Origin: Myxococcota bacterium
Lineage (GTDB): Bacteria; Myxococcota_A; UBA796; GCA-2862545
Direction of reading: 5' to 3'
Assembly: GCA_039208735.1 (NCBI GenBank)
Contig: JBCCQY010000215.1
Location: forward strand, 1 to 12,667
DNA length: 12,667 nucleotides
A model generated the notes under the pieces. The model worked only from the letters and a program-made list of their open reading frames with translations. It had not been told where the DNA came from and did not search any database. This document shows, one piece after another, positions 86 to 10,824 of the stretch (positions are counted from its first letter, which is position 1; the number at the start of each line of letters is the position of its first letter). The position numbers and the translations under genes are program-made.

Positions 86-259
86 GAGCCAGCTGCGGCC
101 GCTGCACCGAAGCCGGCCGCTCCCGCGCCCGCCCCGAATCCTCCGGCCCCGTCGGAAGACAGCGCTCCGGCCAATGGCATCGCGTTGCTGTTCCGCGCGC
201 TGGGCGCCATGATCAGCAACTTCTTCCGGAGCCTCTTCGGCGGTGGCTCAACGCGCTGA
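2..259 (+). CDS. 3' part of a gene entering from the left edge: DPFGG repeats, Pro/Ala linker and amphipathic C-terminal helix; possibly a CoxG-like protein tail
   Basis: Frame starting at 2 is open to TGA at 257-259: DPFGGAPAADPFGGAAPAADPFGGAPAAEPAAAAAPKPAAPAPAPNPPAPSEDSAPANGIALLFRALGAMISNFFRSLFGGGSTR*. Repeat units differ mostly at synonymous positions, which supports coding in this frame. It overlaps the convergent coxE end by 12 nt (248-259). CoxG identity is an inference from tail architecture and context only. Confidence 0.8.
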   Translation, partial: DPFGGAPAADPFGGAAPAADPFGGAPAAEPAAAAAPKPAAPAPAPNPPAPSEDSAPANGIALLFRALGAMISNFFRSLFGGGSTR

Positions 260-1426
260 TAGCGCCTCGGCGAGCGATTCGAGGCTCGCGAGGTTGTGGA
301 CCGGCCGGTGCTCGTGAACGTGGGGCAAGATGGCCGCCACGCCTCGAGCCCGAGGTTCAAAGTCGTCGAATCCAAGCAGTGGGTTGAGCCACACGAGCCT
401 GCGGCACCACCGGGACAACCGTTCCATGGTGTCGCCAAGCGCGTCAGGGTCGTCCCGCTCGAGGCCGTCCGTCATGAGCAGCACGGTCGCGCCGGATCCC
501 AGCATGCGGCGAGCCCAGTCCTGTCGGAAGGCGTCGAGGCAGGAGGCGATGCGGGTGCCGCCGCTCCAGTCGCGGACCACCTCGGACAGCTCGCTGAACG
601 CGACGTCGACATCGCGATGGCGCAGCGCTCGGGTGACATGGGTGAGCCGGGTGCCGAACACAAACACGCTCACGCGGTCGCGGTCGTTGGTGAGCGCATG
701 CAGGAAGTGTAGGATCATCCTGCTGTAGCGCTCCATGGAACCACTGACGTCGCACAGCACCACGAGTGGTGATGGACGGGTCTTGGGCGCTCGGTACGCA
801 AGCCGCATGGGCTCCCCAAACGCCCGCCGCGACGCATGCATCGTGCGACGCAAATCGATTCGACGGCCGTGGCTGGCCGGGCGGGTGCGTCGGGTACGCT
901 GCTCGCGCCAGGGGAAGCGGAAACGTGCGAGGATCTTCCTTACCTCCGCTTCCTCATCAGCCGTCATCTCGTCGAAGTCCTTTTGTCGCAAGACCTCACG
1001 CGTCGATGCGGTGTTGCGCATATCGAGCGTGATTTCGGGCGGGGGAGGCGGCTGCGGTCGATTCTTCGGAAACGACCGAGGGCCTACCCCACGCCACGCC
1101 TCGGCGAGTCGTCGCCGGATCTTGGACTTCTTGGTCGGTTGGTCCATGCGGGAGGGAGGCAACAGCATGGACAGGGCCTCGGTCTGGCCAAACGGGTCGC
1201 GCCAGAAGGTGTCGAAGCCCAGGGCGAACAGCTCGTCGTGTTCGCGTCGGCTGACGAAGACGCCCCGCAGGGCCGCGAACACCTCGGTGCGATGTCCGAG
1301 CCCAATGAGTTGCAACGCCTCCACCGCATCAAGAACCTGGGCGGTGCCGACTGGAAGGCCGGCCCGCCGCAGGAATCCTGCGAAGTGCACCACGTTTTCG
1401 GCGAGGCGCCCCCCGAGTTCACTCAC
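248..1426 (-). CDS. coxE: CoxE-like VWA domain protein (about 392 aa)
   Basis: MIDAS DVSGS, SMERYSR, WSGGT, TDG and WLNP motifs typical of VWA_CoxE proteins. The likely start is GTG at 1426 (VSELGGRLAENVVHF), overlapping the coxD stop as GTGA. The 53-codon extension to 1585 in the ORF track lies inside coxD. Confidence 0.9.
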   Translation of the reverse strand: MSELGGRLAENVVHFAGFLRRAGLPVGTAQVLDAVEALQLIGLGHRTEVFAALRGVFVSRREHDELFALGFDTFWRDPFGQTEALSMLLPPSRMDQPTKKSKIRRRLAEAWRGVGPRSFPKNRPQPPPPPEITLDMRNTASTREVLRQKDFDEMTADEEAEVRKILARFRFPWREQRTRRTRPASHGRRIDLRRTMHASRRAFGEPMRLAYRAPKTRPSPLVVLCDVSGSMERYSRMILHFLHALTNDRDRVSVFVFGTRLTHVTRALRHRDVDVAFSELSEVVRDWSGGTRIASCLDAFRQDWARRMLGSGATVLLMTDGLERDDPDALGDTMERLSRWCRRLVWLNPLLGFDDFEPRARGVAAILPHVHEHRPVHNLASLESLAEALSAR

Positions 1427-2319
1427 CCCTCTGTTTCCCCGTGGACCCGGTCGTACAGGCCCTTGGCTTCGCTGCCGCGAATCCGCTCGATGTCGTCTTG
1501 GTACTTGAGCAATACCCCAAGCGTCTGGTCGATCGTTTCTGGGTCGAGGGCCACACGGTCGAGGGCCAACAAGGCCTGGGTCCACTCGATCGATTCAGCG
1601 ACCCCAGGACGCTTGAACACATCCACCTCCCGCAGGGCTTGCACGAAGGCGACGACCTGTGCGGCGAGCCGGGCTTCGGCCTCGGGCACGCGGGTGCGCA
1701 GGATCTGGAGTTCGCGCTCCGCCGACGGGTAGTCGACCCAGTGGTAGAGGCACCGTCGCTTGAGGGCGTCGTGGACCTCCCGCGTGCGGTTCGACGTGAT
1801 GATGACGATGGGCGGCGACTCGGCGCGCAGGACCCCCAATTCGGGAACCGTGACCTGGTAGTCCGAGAGCAGTTCGAGCAGGAACGCTTCAAACGGCTCG
1901 TCGGCCCGGTCGAGTTCGTCGATGAGGAGCACGGGCGGGCCTGCGTCATCGGACTCCAACGCCTGCAGGAGCGGACGTCGGATGAGGAAGCGCTCGCTGT
2001 AGAGATCGGCAGCGGAGAGCTGCTCTCCCGTACCCGACTCGCCAAGTCGAATCTCGAGGAGCTGCTGCGAGACATTCCACTCATACACGGCGGTGGAGGT
2101 GTCGAGCCCCTCGTAGCACTGAAGACGAATGAGCCGGCGCCCCAGCGTTTGGGCCAAGACCTTCGCAATCTCGGTTTTGCCCACGCCGGGTTCGCCTTCG
2201 AGGAACAACGGTCGCTGTCGCTTCAGGGAAAGGAAGACGACCGTCGCGAGGAGCCGGTCGCACACGTAGCCGCCACGCTCGAGAAGCCCGACGACGCTGT
2301 CGACCGACTCCACGCTCAC
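1423..2319 (-). CDS. coxD: CoxD-like MoxR-family AAA+ ATPase
   Basis: Walker A GEPGVGKT, RLQCYEGLD, Walker B LLIDE, sensor ITSN, ALKRRC. The GTG start overlaps the coxM stop (GTGA, 2316-2319). Confidence 0.93.
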   Translation of the reverse strand: MSVESVDSVVGLLERGGYVCDRLLATVVFLSLKRQRPLFLEGEPGVGKTEIAKVLAQTLGRRLIRLQCYEGLDTSTAVYEWNVSQQLLEIRLGESGTGEQLSAADLYSERFLIRRPLLQALESDDAGPPVLLIDELDRADEPFEAFLLELLSDYQVTVPELGVLRAESPPIVIITSNRTREVHDALKRRCLYHWVDYPSAERELQILRTRVPEAEARLAAQVVAFVQALREVDVFKRPGVAESIEWTQALLALDRVALDPETIDQTLGVLLKYQDDIERIRGSEAKGLYDRVHGETEG

Positions 2320-3113
2320 GCTGCGGCCGCCACTGCGCGCTTCGCGAGCACAGCCATCAGGTGGGCGCGATAGTCAGCCGAGAAATCCGGGTCCGAGTTC
2401 AAGTAGGTCGCGGGGACCGACAAGCTCGCCACGGCGTCGGGGGCCCAATTTGCTGTCAGCGCCTGCTGCGCGGCGGGCCAGGGCATGGCCTTCTCGGTGG
2501 CTCCGGTCACGCCGACGCGCGCGCCATCCGCGAACTGCGCCACGAACACGCCCACGACCGCGTACTTCGAGGCCGGATGGGGGAACTTCTGGTAATTCGC
2601 GCGCTGGGGCACGCGGAACGACACTTCGGTGATGATCTCGTTGGTTCCGAGCGCGGTGGTGAAGAGTCCCGTAAAGAACTGGGGCCCAGGGATCTTGCGC
2701 AGGTTCGTGTGGATCACGGCGTCGAGCGCAAGGATCGCCGAAGGGTAGTCCGCCGCGGGGTCCGCATGGGCGAGCGACCCGCCGATGGTGCCACGGTTGC
2801 GGACCTGAGCATCGCCGATGCCCCCCGCGAGGCCGGCGAGGGCCGGAATCACTCGGTTGACGACGTCGGAGCGGTGGACGCTGTCGTGCGTTTGGCCCGC
2901 GCCGATGATGAGCCGGTCGCCTTCTTCCCGAATGCCCTGGAGCGAATCGACACCCCGCAGGCTCACGAGATCGGTCGGAGCCGAAAGGCCTTCCTTGAGG
3001 ATGGGCAGGTAGCTTTGTCCGCCCCCGAGCACTTTCTTGTTGTCGTCGCCCGCCGCCAGGAGTCCGGCAGCTTCATCCACGGTCTTGGGACGATGGAATT
3101 TGAAGTTGTGCAC
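2316..3113 (-). CDS. coxM: FAD-binding medium subunit of a CO dehydrogenase/xanthine dehydrogenase family enzyme
   Basis: GGGQS, QVRNRGTIGGSLAHADPAAD and FFTGLFTTAL motifs. GTG start preceded by AGGAGG that overlaps the coxL TAG stop. Confidence 0.93.
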   Translation of the reverse strand: MHNFKFHRPKTVDEAAGLLAAGDDNKKVLGGGQSYLPILKEGLSAPTDLVSLRGVDSLQGIREEGDRLIIGAGQTHDSVHRSDVVNRVIPALAGLAGGIGDAQVRNRGTIGGSLAHADPAADYPSAILALDAVIHTNLRKIPGPQFFTGLFTTALGTNEIITEVSFRVPQRANYQKFPHPASKYAVVGVFVAQFADGARVGVTGATEKAMPWPAAQQALTANWAPDAVASLSVPATYLNSDPDFSADYRAHLMAVLAKRAVAAAA

Positions 3114-3122
3114 GTCGACCTC

Positions 3123-5477
3123 CTAGGCTTGCTTGGCGGCGCTGAGGGCCTGCCAGATCTTGTGGGGGGTGGCGGGCATGGAGATGTCGGTCACGCCAGC
3201 CGGCTTGAGGGCATCGATGACGGCGTTGATGACCGCCGGAGGAACGCCGATCGAACCCACCTCACCGACGCCCTTGGCGCCAATGGGGTTGTGGGTGCAC
3301 GGCGTGATGTGGAGTCCCGTGGTGAAGTTCGGGAAGTCCGCGGCGCGGGGCATCGTGTAGTTCATGTACGAGCCCGTCACGAGCTGACCGCGCTCATCGT
3401 AGTGGCAGCTCTCATACAGTGCCTGGCCGATCCCCTGAGCCAGTCCACCGTGGATCTGACCGTCGACGATCATCGGGTTGATGACGGTACCGATGTCATC
3501 GGCCACGACCACCTGACACAGTTCAACCATGCCGGTCTCGGGGTCGATCTCCAGTTCGACGACGTGCGAACCACCCGGGAACGTGAAGTTCTTCGGATCG
3601 TAGAATGCCGACTCTTCGAGGCCGGGTTCCAACTCCTCGATCGGGTACTTGTGGGGGACGTAGGCCGTCAGCGCCACGTCTCCGAAGCCCACCGCCTTCT
3701 CGGTCCCGGCGACCTTGAACTGGCCCCCTTCGAAGACGATGTCGTCCGCACTCGCTTCGAGCAGGTGCGCTGCAATCTTCTTGCCCTTCTCGACGATCTT
3801 GTTCGCCGCCTTCGCGATGGCCGACCCGCCGACCGCGAGCGAACGCGAACCGTAGGTACCCATGCCGAACGCGGAGTTCGCCGAGTCGCCGTGGTCGATG
3901 GTCACGTTGGCGATGTCGATGCCAAACGCATCCGCGACGATCTGCGCGAACGTGGTTTCATGGCCCTGACCGTGGCTGTGGGTCCCCGTGAACACGGTGA
4001 CCGAGCCAGTGGGGTGAACGCGAATGGTCGATGACTCGTAGAGGCCCGCGCGAGCCCCGAGTGCCCCGACGAGCGCAGAGGGCGCAATGCCGCAAGCCTC
4101 GACGTAGGTGGAGATGCCGATGCCCCGCAGCTTGCCGCGCGACTTGGCCTCCGCCCGACGAGCCTCGAAGCCCGCCCAATCCGATGCCTCGAGCGCTTGG
4201 TCGAGGCAGGCATCGTAGTCACCGACGTCGTACTCGAGGGCCACTGGCGTCTGGTACGGGAAGTCCCGGATGAAGTTCTTCCGGCGGATCTCGATGCGGT
4301 CCATCCCCAACTGGGCCGCTGCCTTGTCGACGAGACGCTCGAGGATGTAGGTCGCTTCGGGACGACCGGCCCCGCGGTACGCATCGACGGGGCAGGTGTG
4401 CGTGAAATACGCCTTCACTTCGACGTAGATCGCGGGCGTCGTGTAGACACCGGCCATCAGCGTACCGTGGAGCCACGTGGGCACCGCGGGGGCGAACGTC
4501 GACAGGTAAGCGCCCATGTTCGCCGCGGTCTGCTCGTGCAGCGCGAGGAACTTGCCCTCAGCATCGAGTGCGAGGCGGCACTTCGTGATGTGGTCACGGC
4601 CGTGCGCGTCCGACATGAACGACTCGGAGCGCTCCGCGGTCCACTTGACGGGCACCTTCAGCTTACGTGAGGCCCAGGTGACGAGGATTTCTTCTGCGTA
4701 GTGGAAGATCTTCGAACCGAAGCCGCCGCCGACGTCCGGTGCGACCACCCGGAGCTTGTGCTCTGGAATCGACAGGACGAACGCACCGAGCAAAAGCCGG
4801 ATGAGGTGTGGATTCTGGCTCGTGGTGTAGAGCGTCGTCATGTCCGTCGCGGGGTCGTAGTGCCCGTTGGCGGCGCGCGGTTCCATCGCGTTGGGAATCA
4901 CGCGGTTGTTGACGAGGTCGATTTCCACCACGTGGGCGGCATTGGCGAACGCTTGCTCGACGGGCTCGGGCTCGCCGAGGTGCCAGTCGTAGCAGACATT
5001 GTCGGGCGCGTCGTCCCAGACCTTGGCGTTGCCCGCGATGGCCTGTTCGAGGTTGGCCACGGCCGTCTGCTCGTCGTAGTCGACGATGACCGCGGCAGCT
5101 GCATCCTTGGCCGCCTGCTTGGTCTCGGCCACCACCATGGCCACGATGTCACCGACGTGACGCGCCGTGCTCTGCACAATCGCGGGGTGCGGCGGCTCGA
5201 CCATCACCGAGCCGTCTTTGTTGGTGATCTGCCAGCCGCACGGCACACCACCGACCTCGTCCTGCGCGATGTCGTTGCCGGTATAGATCGCATGCACGCC
5301 CGGTCGTGCCATGGCGGCACTCGTGTCGACCGATTTGATCGTCGCGTGTGCGTAAGGTGACCGCACAAAGACGGCGAAGGTCTGGCCCGGCAACACGATG
5401 TCGTCGGTGTAGCGACCCCGGCCGGTGATGAAGCGGTCGTCTTCCTTCCGCGCGATGCGTTGCCCAACGTACGCCAT
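3123..5477 (-). CDS. coxL: Molybdopterin-binding large subunit, form II CoxL-like molybdenum hydroxylase (784 aa)
   Basis: [18 protein letters not shown]-terminus, [18 protein letters not shown] (4362-4382 for AYRGAGR), [33 protein letters not shown] (catalytic Glu). Confidence 0.95.
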
Positions 5478-5480
5478 GAC

Positions 5481-5948
5481 TTACGCCCCCTTCATGTTGG
5501 AGGCCGCGGACCGAACGGCCGCGACGATGTTTTGGTACCCAGTACAGCGACAGATGTTGCCCTCGAGCCACTCCCGAACCTCGTCCTCGCTGGGGTCCGG
5601 ATTGCGATTCACCAGATCGACCGCACTCATGATCATGCCGGGCGTACAGAACCCACATTGAAGACCATGGTGTTCGCGAAAGGCGGTTTGCATAGGATGC
5701 AACTCCCCATTCGGGGCGAGTCCTTCGATCGTCTTCACCTCTCCACCGTCGGCTTCGGCGGCGAGCATGGCGCAGGACTTCACGGAAGCCCCATTCACAT
5801 GCACGACGCAAGCGCCGCACTGACTCGTGTCGCACCCTACGTGGGTCCCCGTGAGACGCATGGTCTCTCGGAGGAAGTCGACGAGGAGCGTTCTCGGCTC
5901 GACGTCGCGGGTGACTGTCTTTCCGTTGACGGTCATCGTCACGTTCAT
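5481..5948 (-). CDS. coxS: 2x[2Fe-2S] small subunit of a CO dehydrogenase/xanthine dehydrogenase family enzyme
   Basis: [10 protein letters not shown]...[10 protein letters not shown] and GNICRCTGY iron-sulfur motifs; strong SD GGAGG at 5953-5957 (minus strand). Confidence 0.95.
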
Positions 5949-6085: not shown

Positions 6086-6544
6086 CTAACCGGCGCGGCG
6101 GTACGTCGACCAGGCCACGTACTGACCATCGCGAGTCGCAACCAGGAGCTGCTTGCGGGGAGTTCCGTTGGGTTTCCAGCTCACGTGGATGTGGGGCTTG
6201 GACTCGTAGAGGATGGCTTGGTCGATGGGCGCTCCGTCCTCCATCAGTTGGAGGAGCACCCGCCACGCTTCGTCTTTCGTCGCCCGTCGGGGTACCACAT
6301 CGGCCGCTTGGCCGTCGAGGTGCTGGCTCGTTGGGGCTCCTCCTACCGCTTGGTTGACCTTGAACGAACGATAGCCGCTCGTCACTTCGAGGACCCCGAT
6401 CCGGTCCCGCCATGGCTGCAACACTCGCGCGGCCCCATAGGTCAAGGCATCCACCTGCCGAGGGGAAGGCTCGTTGTAGAACGGCTGCGAGGTCTTGGTG
6501 AGCTCCTCGAGCGTGAAGTGCTGCGACAAGTACGTGGTCGGCAT
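6086..6544 (-). CDS. Peptidase M15A family zinc metallopeptidase (D-Ala-D-Ala carboxypeptidase/endolysin-like), about 152 aa
   Basis: HFTLEEL, TSGYRS, SQHLDGQAAD (His and Asp Zn ligands) and HIHVSW (His ligand). Probable start is ATG at 6544 with GAGGA upstream; the ORF track start at 6580 is less likely. No signal peptide visible. Confidence 0.88.
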   Translation of the reverse strand: MPTTYLSQHFTLEELTKTSQPFYNEPSPRQVDALTYGAARVLQPWRDRIGVLEVTSGYRSFKVNQAVGGAPTSQHLDGQAADVVPRRATKDEAWRVLLQLMEDGAPIDQAILYESKPHIHVSWKPNGTPRKQLLVATRDGQYVAWSTYRRAG

Positions 6545-6594
6545 TCGTTTCCTCACGTCGACGATACGACGCGACATCACTTCAAGGAGCCGTC

Positions 6595-7272
6595 ATGAGC
6601 GACGTTGAGCGCGCACGCTTGGTCTTCTTTTCCGACTACATATGACCATGGTGCTACCTCGCGGAGCGAGGTACCCTGAAGCCCCTGCTAGACCAGTTCG
6701 ACATTGATTTTGAATGGCGTGGGTTCGAACTGCACCCCGAAATCCCCGCCGGAGGGCTGGAGCTTGGTGACATGTTCGCACCAGCCCAGGTCGAAGCGAT
6801 GCATGCCCGACTGTCCAGCGTGGGCGAGTCGCTTGGCGTTCCCTTCACCCCACGGCCCCACGCCCCCAGCACCAAGCCTGCCCTGCTCCTTTCGGACTAC
6901 GCCCGACGGCATGGGAAGCTTGACGCATGGCGGGAAGCCGCGATGAACGCCCATTGGCGCGACGGGCGCGACATCGAAGACCGCGCGTACCTCACCGAGC
7001 TGCTCGAAGCCGTGGGCCTAGACGTCGAGGAAGCGTGGGCGTTTGTCGACAGCGAGGAGGCGCCGCGCATCCTCCACCAGCAGCGGGCGGACGCCATGCG
7101 CTGGGGCGTGTCGGGCATTCCCACGTGGTTCTTGCTTCCTGCGGGATGGGACCTCGGCGATCCGCGGCCTGCCGACGGAGCCCCACAGCCCATCCGGGTC
7201 GTGGGCTGTCAGCCGATGGACGTGGTGTTGGCGGCGGCCGAAAGAGCAGGCGCGACACCGCGTTCCGGCTAG
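6595..7272 (+). CDS. DsbA/FrnE-family thioredoxin-fold oxidoreductase, probable selenoprotein with a UxxC motif (225 aa, Sec at codon 17)
   Basis: SD AAGGAG 6584-6589 and ATG 6595. Translates MSDVERARLVFFSDYI[TGA 6643-6645]PWCYLAERGTLKPLLDQFDIDFEWRGFELHPEIP and continues in frame (59 codons) into the 6772..7272 ORF, which has the helical insert, GVSGIPTW cis-Pro motif and GCQP. SDxxCPWCY and WRxFELxP are FrnE-family hallmarks. Confidence 0.9.
6646..6678 (+). promoter_or_regulatory. Putative bacterial SECIS element
   Basis: Perfect 8-bp stem TACCTCGC (6655-6662) / GCGAGGTA (6666-6673) closing a GGA loop that begins after a 17-nt spacer from the TGA. An imperfect lower stem CATGG (6647-6651) / CCCTG (6674-6678) with a TGC bulge is also possible. 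Confidence 0.8.
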
Positions 7273-7291
7273 GGTGTGGTTAGGCGGCGCC

Positions 7292-9073
7292 TTATGCGGA
7301 TTGAGGGGTCGCTTCCTCGGATTCGTCGTGCTCTTCGGCGAACTGACTGGCGAACAGGTCGGCGTAGGCGCCTTCGCGGGCCAGAAGTTCGGTGTGGCTG
7401 CCCGATTCGAGGACCCGGCCATGGTCGAGGACCACGATGCGGTCTGCTCCGGTGATCGTGGACAGTCGGTGGGCCACGACGAGTACGGTACGTTTATCAA
7501 ACAGCGCCTGCGTGGCCTCTTGGATTCGGGACTCGGTGAGGGTGTCGACCGACGCGGTGGCCTCATCGAGGATGACGAGCGGGGCCTCGTGGGCCAGCGT
7601 GCGGGCAAACGACAGCAACTGGGCTTCGCCGACGCTCACGTTGCGCCCGCCGTACTCGATGCGGCCATCCAGCCCGCCCAGACGCGCCACCACCTCGTGG
7701 GCCTGAGCCAGGCGGATGGCCTCTTTCAGCTCGGCATCGTCGATGTCGTGGCCGAGGGTCAGGTTGAACCGGACGTCACCTGGGAACAGCACCACATCCT
7801 GCTGGACGGTGGTGATGCGTCGGCGGAGGGCAGCCAGGGTGATGCGCTTCAGCTCGACGCCATCGATGCTCGCCTGACCGGTGTAGCCATCGTAAGCCCG
7901 CATGAGCACACGGCCAATCGTCGTCTTGCCCGAGCCGGTCCGTCCAACCAACGCGACCACTTCGCCGGGGGCAATGGTGAGGTCGATGCCTTTGATGACC
8001 TCGGGGCCGCTTCCATAGGCGAAATGCAGGTCGTGCAGCTCGACCGCGCCGACCTCGGTGGGCAGTTCGAGATCGCCCGGTGCGATGTGCTCCTCGTGGT
8101 CCAACAGCGAGAAGATCTTCTCGAGCGCCGCACCGGCCCGCTGCAAGATGGCCAGCTTGGCGGACAACTCCCGAATCGGGGTGAACAGCTTGCCGATGTA
8201 CTCGATGAACGCTGCGATGAGTCCGGCGCTGACGATGCCTTCAAAGAACGACGCGCCCGAGTACCAGAGCATGAGCGCCATCGTGATCGACGTCAGCCCA
8301 TCGACGATGGCGTAAAGCAGTGCATCGAAGATGTTCGTGCCCACGGTGGCGCTGCGGTAGGACGTCAACCGGTCGTCGAACTGCGAAAGGACGCGTTCCT
8401 CGTCGCGGTAGAGCTGCACGACCTCGACGCCCGAAATGCGCTCGGCGGTGTAGGCATTGAGTTCGGACAGTGTGGTGCGCACGGCCTGAAAGAGCTTTCG
8501 TAGGCGTCGCCGGATGAGTTCGACGGCGAGGGCCAAAGGGGGAGCCACGAGCAACAGCACCGCGGTCAGCCAAGGGTCGAGCGACACCATGGCGAAGAGA
8601 ATGCCCAAGACGAGCAGGATGTCGAGCACGATCGTGAAGGCACCCGCCGATAAGGTCTCGCCAAGCGACTCGACGTCAGATGTGGCGCGGGTGAGCAGCC
8701 GTCCGGTGGGTTCGCGGTCGAAAAAGCTGGGCGCGAGCGACAGGGTGTGTCGGAACACCTCATCTCGCAGCTGGGTGATGGACCGGGTTGCGCCATACGA
8801 AATCGCAAGCGTATACCCGGCTTCTGCGACGAACGAGATGAACACCGCGCCAAGGAACATCATGGCGATGGCCAAGATGGCGTCGACGTCGCCAGGAACG
8901 ATGCCTTCGTCGATGGCGCGCTTCAGCAGGTAAGGCTGGACCACCGTGAGCATGGCCGACAGCGGTGCGAGGGCCATCGCCACGATGTAGTAGGGACTTT
9001 CGCTGCGCAGGTAAGGAAGCAGCTTGGTCAGGAGGGACCAGTCGCTCTGGCCCTCGGGTTCTTCAAGCAACAT
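7292..9073 (-). CDS. ABC exporter half-transporter (TMD-NBD), MdlB/YheH-like subunit of a heterodimer
   Basis: Hydrophobic N-terminal TMD with FFDREPTGRLLTR, Walker A GRTGSGKTT, degenerate signature VSVGE, Walker B VILDE, H-switch VAHR. The ATG overlaps the upstream TGA at 9073. Confidence 0.93.
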   Translation of the reverse strand: MLLEEPEGQSDWSLLTKLLPYLRSESPYYIVAMALAPLSAMLTVVQPYLLKRAIDEGIVPGDVDAILAIAMMFLGAVFISFVAEAGYTLAISYGATRSITQLRDEVFRHTLSLAPSFFDREPTGRLLTRATSDVESLGETLSAGAFTIVLDILLVLGILFAMVSLDPWLTAVLLLVAPPLALAVELIRRRLRKLFQAVRTTLSELNAYTAERISGVEVVQLYRDEERVLSQFDDRLTSYRSATVGTNIFDALLYAIVDGLTSITMALMLWYSGASFFEGIVSAGLIAAFIEYIGKLFTPIRELSAKLAILQRAGAALEKIFSLLDHEEHIAPGDLELPTEVGAVELHDLHFAYGSGPEVIKGIDLTIAPGEVVALVGRTGSGKTTIGRVLMRAYDGYTGQASIDGVELKRITLAALRRRITTVQQDVVLFPGDVRFNLTLGHDIDDAELKEAIRLAQAHEVVARLGGLDGRIEYGGRNVSVGEAQLLSFARTLAHEAPLVILDEATASVDTLTESRIQEATQALFDKRTVLVVAHRLSTITGADRIVVLDHGRVLESGSHTELLAREGAYADLFASQFAEEHDESEEATPQSA

Positions 9074-10824
9074 CAGGCGGTCTCCGCGACGGGCTCAGGC
9101 TCGGATTGGCGGAGCCACGCTTCGCGATAAGGGGAATCGATCGTCATCAATTCGTCGTGGTTTCCCGTTGCTACCACCTTGCCCTTGTCGAGCACGACGA
9201 TGATGTCGGCATGGCGCAAGGCAGAGATTCGGTTGGCCACGATGAGCGTCGTGGGACGTCGTTCCATGCGTTGTAGTTCGGAGATGAGCGTCGCTTCGGT
9301 GGCGTGGTCGACCGCCGAGAGCACGTCGTCGAGAATGAGCACGTTGGCATTGCGTGAAAGGCCACGCGCGAGCGCCACCCGCTGGCGTTGCCCACCCGAC
9401 AGCGTCAGTCCGGCTTCCCCGACCTCGGTGCGTACGCCGTTGGGGAGGGCATCCATGTCGACCTTGAGCTGGGCTCGCTCCAGCAGCGGGTCGAGGATGC
9501 CGGGGTCGGCACCCAACAGCACGTTGTCGGAGACGGTTTCGGAGAACAGGAAAGCCCGCTGGGGAACGAGCACCGCCCGGTCGCGCCAGTCCATCAGGTC
9601 CAGCTGGCGAACGTCCACGCCGTCGACGAACACCGTGCCCGCAGGCGGATCTTCGAGCCGGGTAAGGCATCGCAATAGGGTGGACTTGCCCGAGCCCGTG
9701 GGCCCGAACACGCCAAGCGTACCGCCCGCAGGCACGCTGACCGACACGTTCTCGAGGGCCGGAGCGGCATCCGAATCGGCGTCTGGGTAGCGGTAGGTCA
9801 GCCCTTCAAACCGAATGCCCGGCGGGGCCTTGGGAGGGGCTTCGGGATTCGGCAGGTCAGGTCGGGTGGGAGGGCGCGACAGGATGACGTCGAGTCGTTC
9901 CATGGCCGCTTGGGCTTGGCGAAACAGCGACAGGATGAAGGTCATGCCTCGCAGGGGGCCCGTCAGGTAGGTCACGAGGGTGATGAAAGCGACCAACTCG
10001 CCCACTGTGAGCGTGCCCGCCGACGGCATCGGTCCACCAATCCAGAGCAGCAGGAAAATGTTGAAGCTTGCGGCAAGGGAGAGCACGGGTCCAATGCCTA
10101 CGCGAAGCCGGGCGCGTTCGAGTTGGGCTTCCAAGGCTTCGCGATTTAGAGGGGCAAATCGTTCGCGAACCGGCGCTTCTGCCCCGAAGGCTTTGAGCGT
10201 AGCGACACCTTGGTAGGACGACAGCACAAAGTCTGACAGCGCACTCGTGGCTTCCTGCATTCGCTGTTGGATTCGGCGGAAACGGCCGACGAACGCGAGG
10301 GTAATCGAAAACCCAATCACGAGCGGAAGGGTCACGGCCACGGCAAGGGTTGGCGACAACCGCACCATCTGGCTGGCGGTGAGTCCCATGGCGATGATGG
10401 TGTTGACGATGCCAAGGATCGTGAACCCGAACAGCAACCGCACCATCTGCACATCGGAGGTGATGCGATTCATCAGGTCGCCGGCGGGGAACTCCGCGTG
10501 GAAGTCGGGCTGATGACGCAAGATGCTCGCAAACAGGTCCCGTTTGAGGCGGGCTTCGACGAGACGGCCCGGGGTGAAGAAGAGGAGTCGCGAGGACCAT
10601 CGGACCAAGATCACGAGCCCGCCCATGACGGCGACGTAGGCCGCGGCCTCAACGACCTCTCCGCGGCTCGCGGGCCCCTCCCTTAGGGCATCGATCCCTT
10701 GAGCTAAGTAGAGAGGAATGGTCACGGAAAGTGCGTTGGTCGCTGCGATGAGCAACGTTCCAACGACATACCACCACACGTACGGTCCGCCGTACCGCCG
10801 AAAAAACTGGACGAGGAGTTTCAC
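9073..10824 (-). CDS. ABC exporter half-transporter (TMD-NBD), MdlA/YheI-like subunit of a heterodimer
   Basis: TMD with GDLMNRITSD, Walker A GPTGSGKST, Q-loop VPQ, signature LSGGQ, degenerate Walker B LILDD and switch VANR. GTG start. Confidence 0.93.
   Translation of the reverse strand: MKLLVQFFRRYGGPYVWWYVVGTLLIAATNALSVTIPLYLAQGIDALREGPASRGEVVEAAAYVAVMGGLVILVRWSSRLLFFTPGRLVEARLKRDLFASILRHQPDFHAEFPAGDLMNRITSDVQMVRLLFGFTILGIVNTIIAMGLTASQMVRLSPTLAVAVTLPLVIGFSITLAFVGRFRRIQQRMQEATSALSDFVLSSYQGVATLKAFGAEAPVRERFAPLNREALEAQLERARLRVGIGPVLSLAASFNIFLLLWIGGPMPSAGTLTVGELVAFITLVTYLTGPLRGMTFILSLFRQAQAAMERLDVILSRPPTRPDLPNPEAPPKAPPGIRFEGLTYRYPDADSDAAPALENVSVSVPAGGTLGVFGPTGSGKSTLLRCLTRLEDPPAGTVFVDGVDVRQLDLMDWRDRAVLVPQRAFLFSETVSDNVLLGADPGILDPLLERAQLKVDMDALPNGVRTEVGEAGLTLSGGQRQRVALARGLSRNANVLILDDVLSAVDHATEATLISELQRMERRPTTLIVANRISALRHADIIVVLDKGKVVATGNHDELMTIDSPYREAWLRQSEPEPVAETA

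Follow-up and report, generated by a model that had tools for sequence, protein, structure and literature searches.

The DNA analysed here is contig JBCCQY010000215.1 of the Myxococcota bacterium assembly GCA_039208735.1, a stretch of 12,667 nucleotides that is called the window throughout (contig C215 in our numbering). Its forward strand carries, at 6595-7272, a gene for a DsbA/FrnE-like thiol-disulfide oxidoreductase that is very probably a genuine selenoprotein gene, with the TGA at codon 17 predicted from the sequence to be read as selenocysteine (Sec, U). The first-pass annotation had proposed this recoding and a resulting 225-residue enzyme with a UxxC redox centre, and the proposal was supported by the pairing of Sec and Cys forms among homologues, by the Sec machinery of the host, by co-occurrence with SelA and by a covarying hairpin after the TGA.

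The gene is complete, as judged from the translation with TGA as U, the Pfam domain, a profile match to FrnE and the AlphaFold and Foldseek results. The read-through frame of 225 codons runs from ATG at 6595-6597 to TAG at 7270-7272 (+) and is unbroken when TGA is translated as U. A Shine-Dalgarno sequence, AAGGAG, is seen at 6584-6589 (+) with a spacing of 5 nucleotides to the start codon. The predicted Sec codon, TGA at 6643-6645 (+), is a conserved codon in homologues and takes the first position of the U-P-W-C redox motif; its context is FFSDYI-TGA-CCA-TGG-TGC-TAC, read SDYI-U-PWC-Y. The TGC at 6652-6654 (+) encodes Cys20, the resolving Cys of the UxxC motif, which is invariant in a 32-sequence alignment. 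The first-pass annotation had described the Shine-Dalgarno sequence, the ATG at 6595, the SDYI-TGA-PWCY motif and the frame open to 7272 correctly, and also the 166-residue open reading frame (ORF) called by standard gene finding (table-11 ORF list; 6772-7272, +), which begins at Met60, downstream of the motif, and lacks the redox centre. Pfam DSBA (PF01323) matched residues 9-180 of the read-through product (E = 9e-31; 107.6 bits, gathering cut-off 25.6). Since this match starts at residue 9, before the TGA, the domain spans the TGA, which is more than would be expected by chance. The residues L9, F11, F12, S13 and D14 upstream of the TGA, together with P18 and C20 downstream, are invariant in 8 orthologues (45-81% identity).

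The TGA is kept at the same codon in related genomes. Among 61 of them, the window's own included, 8 had a match at 45-100% identity, each with TGA at this codon and with the motif FFSD[YF][IV]-U-P[WY]C; the second TGA of genome G045 is the genuine stop of its gene. An even sample of the phylum (401 genomes) gave 15 matches at E<=1e-25, 12 with TGA at that codon and 3 with TGC or TGT, and all 3 Cys-form genomes belong to family f18. A scan of named genomes yielded 80 loci, and, as predicted for homologues at codon 17, either TGA (55 loci) or TGC/TGT (24 loci) was found there, the remaining locus (L127) not being placed by the motif pattern. The 61-genome, 401-genome and named-genome sets overlap in part. 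Judged by record titles, the sources of the TGA forms are Myxococcota/'Deltaproteobacteria', Gemmatimonadota, Chloroflexota, Thermoanaerobaculia, Binatia and Calditrichaceae. The in-frame TGA aligns with Cys in the homologues and has conserved flanks on both sides, and this alternation of TGA and Cys at the first position of a CxxC centre is, at the sequence level, the classic Sec/Cys pattern.

Assembled Logan contigs of run X1 (94% of words) and of run X2, from a second study, were compared over 6643-6645, and every one of them showed TGA; these two runs come from marine and microbial-mat habitats, and two further runs, X3 and X4, yielded no matching contig. Contigs of diverged strains also kept it, namely X1 record 2 (18 differences) and X2 record 5 (11 differences), and one nearby difference among these contigs is the synonymous site 6648. 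The whole-genome searches together gave TGA at the same codon in 15 of 15 other orthologue-carrying genomes; present in these genomes and in contigs of a second study, the TGA is no nonsense mutation private to this genome, which the first-pass annotation had named as the outcome that would speak against recoding.

The machinery for Sec that had been predicted for the host was found in the window's own assembly (9.4 Mb, 288 contigs, 92.7% complete, 6.15% contamination), which encodes tRNA-Sec, SelA, SelB and SelD. The tRNA-Sec scored 64.1 bits against the Rfam cut-off of 47 bits, and ARAGORN called the same tRNA as tRNA-SeC with anticodon tca. SelA was found at 380 bits, the wing domain of SelB at 56.5 bits inside a 715-residue open frame, and selD at 372.6 bits with one in-frame TGA.

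The presence of the TGA form followed that of SelA across genomes. In 3 sister genomes of the same genus (G001-G003), the TGA-form gene and SelA occur together, and SelA was found at E<=1e-110 in all 16 other TGA-form genomes, that is, the 15 orthologue carriers and G011, where the TGA lies in a paralogue. Searches of the 3 Cys-form genomes for SelA gave no match in two and one marginal match of 20.8 bits in the third. Of the 401 genomes of the phylum sample, 248 have SelA, and every one of the 12 TGA-form carriers belongs to these, with none in the remaining 153. In family f18, home of the Cys forms, SelA was found in 0 of 34 genomes.

Other candidate recoded genes were seen beside the window gene. 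The TGA in selD of the same assembly (L011:1531-1533, contig C188 of G000) would make it a second recoded gene there; it reads ...ACAG-U-ASK..., a stretch that we take to be the catalytic Cys/Sec loop of SelD, so that the prediction of a selenoprotein extends to the host SelD. The G011 paralogue (L042:1519-1521, contig C836) is a distant member of the DsbA family with 25% identity, reading YTDYI-U-PWCYLG with TGA at the first motif position, and this TGA is followed by an 8-bp hairpin with a 3-nucleotide loop. From its sequence, it looks to belong to another DsbA-like subfamily that has a Sec form.

After the TGA of the window gene, a hairpin at 6655-6673 (+) is predicted from fold and covariation to be a bacterial selenocysteine insertion sequence (SECIS), with an 8-bp stem UACCUCGC/GCGAGGUA and the loop GGA (6663-6665). 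It begins 9 nucleotides past the TGA, with 17 nucleotides between the TGA and the loop. The hairpin alone folds at -11.2 kcal/mol (z -4.2), and 0 of 200 shuffles were equally stable; the 38 nucleotides from the UGA fold at -14.8 kcal/mol (z -2.78). The bacterial SECIS model given in a figure legend of a 2026 review (PMC13188914, Fig. 2 legend) has a loop of 3-9 nucleotides with G at the first two loop positions, a stem of 4-16 bp, 16-37 nucleotides from UGA to loop and a minimum free energy <= -7.5 kcal/mol. The 3-nucleotide GGA loop, stem length, UGA-to-loop distance and energy of the window hairpin all fall within this model.

Covariation pointed to the same helix, which RNAalifold recovered from the 8 orthologues. 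Across the window's clade (12 members), 99% of cells are paired in this register compared with <=59% in slid registers, and 6 compensatory cells were found in 2 pairs, a score reached by 0 of 500 shuffles. The compensatory changes replace U-A by C-G, and A-U by U-A or U-G, and they couple the second base of a Tyr/Phe/His codon to the third base of a Gly codon or to the next codon. Since the covariation joins a non-synonymous to a synonymous site, protein constraint alone would not yield it. The helix was then counted at fixed columns in loci L056-L135, over the first 54 nucleotides from the Sec/Cys codon. All 8 pairs were formed in 11 of the 12 Sec forms of the window's clade and 7 of 8 in the remaining one, compared with 3-6 pairs in the other Sec forms (n = 44) and 2-5 pairs in the Cys forms (n = 24), none of which has the full hairpin.

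The other Sec forms have a hairpin farther from the UGA. This distal helix of 7 bp occupies columns 29-35 and 40-46, with its loop at columns 36-39, 32 nucleotides after the UGA, whereas the proximal loop lies at columns 21-23. Among the 44 other Sec forms, 39 have 6-7 of the 7 pairs and 34 have the loop GGUC; in the window's clade (n = 12) only 1-4 of 7 pairs are formed, and the Cys forms (n = 24) never reach 7 pairs, with 6 pairs in two of them (L098, L112). The distal helix also covaries: 91.9% of cells are paired compared with <=52% in slid registers, 3 pairs contain 12 compensatory cells, and a score this high came up in 0 of 500 shuffles. It is spread over at least six phylum labels. Four Sec forms of the UPYC type (L067, L068, L070, L071) have a shifted 7-bp hairpin with the loop GGCU or GGAU, and one Sec form (L104) fits neither helix. 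A hairpin with G-G opening its loop thus tracks Sec, not Cys, and does so at a clade-dependent distance from the UGA.

These observations bear on the evolution of the recoding signal. We somewhat favour the view that, in this one family, the Sec codon has stayed fixed while the SECIS stands at two places, the proximal and distal hairpins being non-homologous and some Cys forms keeping a remnant of the distal one. If both hairpins are functional, the SECIS would have been rebuilt in place inside conserved codons, and the family would be a natural experiment in which the spacing tolerance of SelB lets the recoding signal move with the selenoprotein kept. A limited full-text literature search gave no title on relocation of a SECIS within a family, which is not proof that the subject is unpublished.

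A quick maximum-likelihood tree (IQ-TREE) was made for 80 members, namely 79 named loci and the window. The proximal-hairpin clade formed one group (Shimodaira-Hasegawa-like approximate likelihood ratio test 94), sister to all others under a midpoint root on the long archaeal branch; as the root is not resolved, the tree does not settle the age order of the two SECIS positions. The Cys label requires 8 changes on the tree, with at least 3 of them forced by well-supported branches; switches on very short branches within Anaeromyxobacteraceae are among the 8. Within one clade of metagenome-assembled genomes (MAGs) labelled Anaeromyxobacteraceae (support 98, branches 0.03-0.10), L098, L106 and L112 are Cys forms and L131 is a Sec form, and two of these Cys forms retain 6 of the 7 distal pairs. 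This difference may reflect a recent change from Sec to Cys in which the SECIS is decaying. The closest named relatives of the window gene, L056 and L057 (79-80% identity), are titled 'uncultured Enterobacteriaceae bacterium', whereas other titles in the clade are Myxococcales, Myxococcota and Deltaproteobacteria, and the Enterobacteriaceae titles look like mislabelled bins.

The fold of the read-through protein is that of FrnE. A profile of the orthologues matched, among solved structures, Deinococcus radiodurans FrnE (5cnw, E 4.8e-22), SCO1869 and HCCA isomerase, with U17-P-W-C20 aligned onto the CPWC of FrnE. The AlphaFold model (32 sequences) had a mean predicted local distance difference test score of 95.7 and a predicted template modelling score of 0.90. 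It comprises a strand at 7-13, a helix at 18-34, a helical insertion at 63-169, the Pro176 loop and strands at 177-181 and 200-203, and the UxxC motif (U17-P-W-C20) stands at the start of helix 1 of the thioredoxin fold. Foldseek ranked FrnE first (template modelling (TM) score 0.76, 24-25% identity), followed by SCO1869, YjbH, HCCA isomerase, kappa glutathione S-transferases and the cytosolic reductase DsbM, with the periplasmic DsbAs far lower (E 1e-5 to 1e-4, TM score 0.31-0.60). The codon CCC at 7120-7122 (+) encodes Pro176 of a G-I-P-T loop, in which the 32-sequence alignment shows no variation at I175, P176 or T177 and which is followed in the model by strand 177-181; Pro176 presumably holds the cis-Pro position of thioredoxin folds.

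The protein has the CP(W/F)C-type site of the FrnE subfamily in a DsbA-like domain, with Sec predicted for the first Cys, and a signal peptide appears to be absent, as the first-pass annotation had predicted. No hydrophobic leader was seen, although no dedicated predictor was run: MSDVERARLVFF runs directly into strand 1, which starts at residue 7 of the model, and the export signal of a periplasmic DsbA oxidase was likewise not found there. The C-terminal CxxxxC of FrnE is lacking, with no Cys after Cys205 in a protein that ends at residue 225.

A loop of 18 residues, PAGWDLGDPRPADGAPQP (residues 182-199, window 7138-7191), separates the last two strands; the window's clade and the UPYC clade share it, and distant homologues lack it. 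Just after it comes Cys205 in VVGCQP (TGT at 7207-7209, +), a nearly invariant third Cys that is invariant in the 8 orthologues and at least 90% conserved in the 32-sequence alignment. From the fold topology of the model only, Cys205 should lie on the active-site edge.

For the working of the gene we infer the following course, including Sec insertion, binding of SelB to the hairpin, redox direction and substrates. When the ribosome approaches UGA17, SelB-GTP carrying Sec-tRNA(Sec), with the anticodon UCA, would be captured by the hairpin at 6655-6673. SelB would deliver Sec to the A site and translation would continue to the TAG at 7270, giving a product of 225 residues that is expected to have no signal peptide and to adopt a thioredoxin fold with an inserted helical domain. 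U17-P-W-C20 would sit at the start of helix 1, facing the loop of the invariant Pro176. Sec17 would be exposed and make the attack, which would join it to Cys20 in a selenenylsulfide or to a substrate in a mixed Se-S bond. If the analogy to FrnE of D. radiodurans holds, the protein may act as a cytoplasmic disulfide reductase or isomerase.

Other explanations of the TGA were weighed against recoding as Sec. That it is a nonsense mutation, leaving a pseudogene or only the 166-residue C-terminal piece from Met60, is very improbable: gene callers do report exactly this piece and no expression data for the gene were found, but the TGA is fixed at one codon in orthologues down to 35% identity and in several phyla, the 16 codons upstream of it are under protein-level conservation, a covarying hairpin follows it, TGA forms are confined to SelA-positive genomes, and the Met60 fragment is without strand 1 and helix 1 of the fold. 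The same TGA in independent assemblies of 15 other genomes, and contigs of two studies, diverged strains included, of which none differs at 6643-6645, leave a vanishingly small chance that it is a sequencing or assembly error for TGC or TGT, even though the window comes from a metagenome bin and contigs, not raw reads, were compared. A genome-wide reassignment of TGA as a sense codon (e.g. table 4 or 25), with no Sec, would likewise give an open frame when TGA is translated as a residue. However, the 8 other Pfam-backed ORFs of the window end in TGA (4), TAG (2) and TAA (2) and none has an internal TGA, so that TGA is an ordinary stop here and a reassigned code is excluded by this reasoning; the orthologues themselves also end in TGA, and a dedicated tRNA-Sec (anticodon tca) with selA, selB and selD is present. 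We consider such a reassignment scarcely credible.

It is also unlikely that Sec recoding is true but depends on another structure or on a relaxed SelB, with the hairpin at 6655-6673 arising as a side effect of the L-A-E-R-G codons. The hairpin does lie where the codons are highly conserved, with A23, E24, R25 and G26 all invariant, 4 of its 8 pairs never vary, fold energy fails to separate Sec from Cys forms, and most of the family uses the different, distal hairpin. Yet the Cys forms, which encode the same AE(R/Q), form no more than 2-5 of 8 pairs. Covariation in the two outer pairs joins a non-synonymous site to a synonymous third base or to the next codon (6 compensatory cells). Furthermore, the distal columns of the window's clade form only 1-4 of 7 pairs, so no alternative hairpin is apparent.

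Several results weigh against Sec recoding of the window gene or against the part assigned to its hairpin. The fold energy of the 48 nucleotides after the codon gave a mean z of -1.13 for Sec forms (n = 17) and -0.63 for Cys forms (n = 22), with a one-sided Mann-Whitney p = 0.10 for z and p = 0.22 for raw energy; L038 and L044 were left out of this comparison, as the motif pattern found no site in them. Several Cys forms fold well in G+C-rich DNA, so stability by itself is uninformative, and the 68-nucleotide fold around the site had a z of only -0.54. Rfam gave only chance-level matches on 6400-7400 (IRE_I, MIAT, RT-15) and no SECIS family, and NCBIfam had no model for the read-through protein. 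The related genomes are non-independent samples, and the sequence check relied on assembled contigs rather than raw reads, with X1 possibly being the source sample. Other contigs of a contaminated bin carry the Sec genes, so their linkage to the window is indirect, via the sister genomes. The neighbours differ in every orthologue examined and therefore give no pointer to the substrate or physiological role. No RNA run was among the sequencing runs listed for the sequence, and the presence of selenium in the protein is a prediction.

Compared with described systems, the window gene adds a new member, or a new clade, to a selenoprotein family that is already known, and is not of a new kind. The first-pass annotation had stated that the class is not new, and Zhang & Gladyshev 2005 (PMC1088965) indeed describe DsbA-like UxxC selenoproteins (COG2761) from the Sargasso Sea, 9 sequences, each with a SECIS-like stem-loop. 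A 2006 listing by Zhang et al. includes Anaeromyxobacter dehalogenans, Desulfovibrio desulfuricans and Desulfotomaculum reducens (PMC1794560), and the 2026 catalogue contains a 'DsbA-like protein form 1, PF01323, UxxC' (PMC13188914). The window gene shares with this form 1 the Pfam domain, a UxxC with Sec first, a stem-loop with G in the apical loop after the UGA and widespread Cys homologues, and the family was already known from a myxobacterium (A. dehalogenans); published members were compared by description, not by sequence alignment. The window's clade has the proximal hairpin and the 18-residue insert 182-199; its relatives in Anaeromyxobacter MAGs belong to the distal-hairpin group at 38-41% identity.

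FrnE (DR_0659; PDB 5cnw, 5co3, 5cp1, 5xwh) shares with the window protein the motif SD-x-x-[C/U]-P-W-C-Y, the lack of a signal peptide and the helical insertion domain. It differs in having Cys where Sec is predicted for the window protein and in its C-terminal CxxxxC tail (239-244), which the window protein lacks, while the window protein has the extra 18-residue loop and the conserved Cys in VVGCQP. According to a review, FrnE is an oxidoreductase, predicted to be cytoplasmic, that shows disulfide isomerase activity and reduces insulin, and its mutant is sensitive to cadmium and diamide (PMC8945050). The CxxxxC is proposed there to regenerate the active site, and tail-less FrnE homologues are said to exist, which the window protein resembles in this respect (PMC8945050). 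With periplasmic DsbA of the E. coli type, the window protein has in common the superfamily fold and a CxxC-type centre, but it is without a signal peptide and its structural similarity is much weaker. The motif of E. coli-type periplasmic DsbA is CPHC, compared with UPWC in the window protein.

Public records of the orthologues are cut short and miss the active site. Among the 120 database relatives listed, 59 have CxxC near the N-terminus and 61 (149-213 residues) begin downstream of the motif, as do 48 of the best 52. Four full-length close relatives (P0002-P0005, 59-62% identity) carry CPWC, so Cys forms exist within the same subfamily. The orthologues were present in the searched databases only as 'DsbA family' fragments of 155-199 residues without the active site, and their entries of 164-166 residues begin at the same Met (Met60). 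For the G002-type orthologue (P0124; contig of L058), the NCBI nr record is a 198-residue 'DsbA family protein' whose first residue corresponds to residue 28, and a second call of the same gene has 166 residues; neither includes the active site. Pipelines had been expected to truncate the gene, and both the 61 of 120 listed relatives and the 198-residue nr record do start past the motif. The 2026 review likewise notes that selenoprotein genes are misread by pipelines as truncated proteins (PMC13188914).

Re-annotation of the clade would extend the selenoproteome of large-genome MAGs labelled Myxococcota by a cytoplasmic thiol-disulfide oxidoreductase that depends on Sec, and the gene would mark these organisms as selenium users. 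As the family and UxxC chemistry have been known since 2005, the scientific gain is modest. The more interesting by-product is the evidence that the SECIS position differs between clades and that hairpin pairing follows the Sec/Cys state, which gives tools for SECIS prediction a clean set of comparative test cases.

In the window, the selenoprotein gene stands alone between a divergent and a convergent neighbour, both of which are given as context only. The divergent one is a Peptidase_M15_3 gene at 6086-6580 (-; PF08291, E 1.4e-15), and the convergent one, at 7292-9073 (-), encodes an ABC exporter (ABC_membrane and ABC_tran), with ABC exporters extending over 7292-10824 (-). In the 1.5-kb flanks of 8 orthologues (86 ORFs of at least 170 residues), no conserved partner gene was found. 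The orthologues' neighbours are mutually unrelated and comprise NDK, ABC/HerA, GFA/APH, FG-GAP, CCP_MauG/FSH1/AAA_28, a beta-lactamase fold, YhhN/aldo-keto reductase and GST.

A complete cluster for a molybdenum hydroxylase of the CO-dehydrogenase/xanthine-dehydrogenase type was also observed at 248-5948 (-) of the window. It consists of a [2Fe-2S] small subunit (5481-5948, -), a molybdenum cofactor (MoCo) large subunit (3123-5477, -), a flavin adenine dinucleotide (FAD) subunit (2316-3113, -), an AAA/MoxR-like gene (1423-2319, -) and a VWA CoxE-like gene (248-1585, -).

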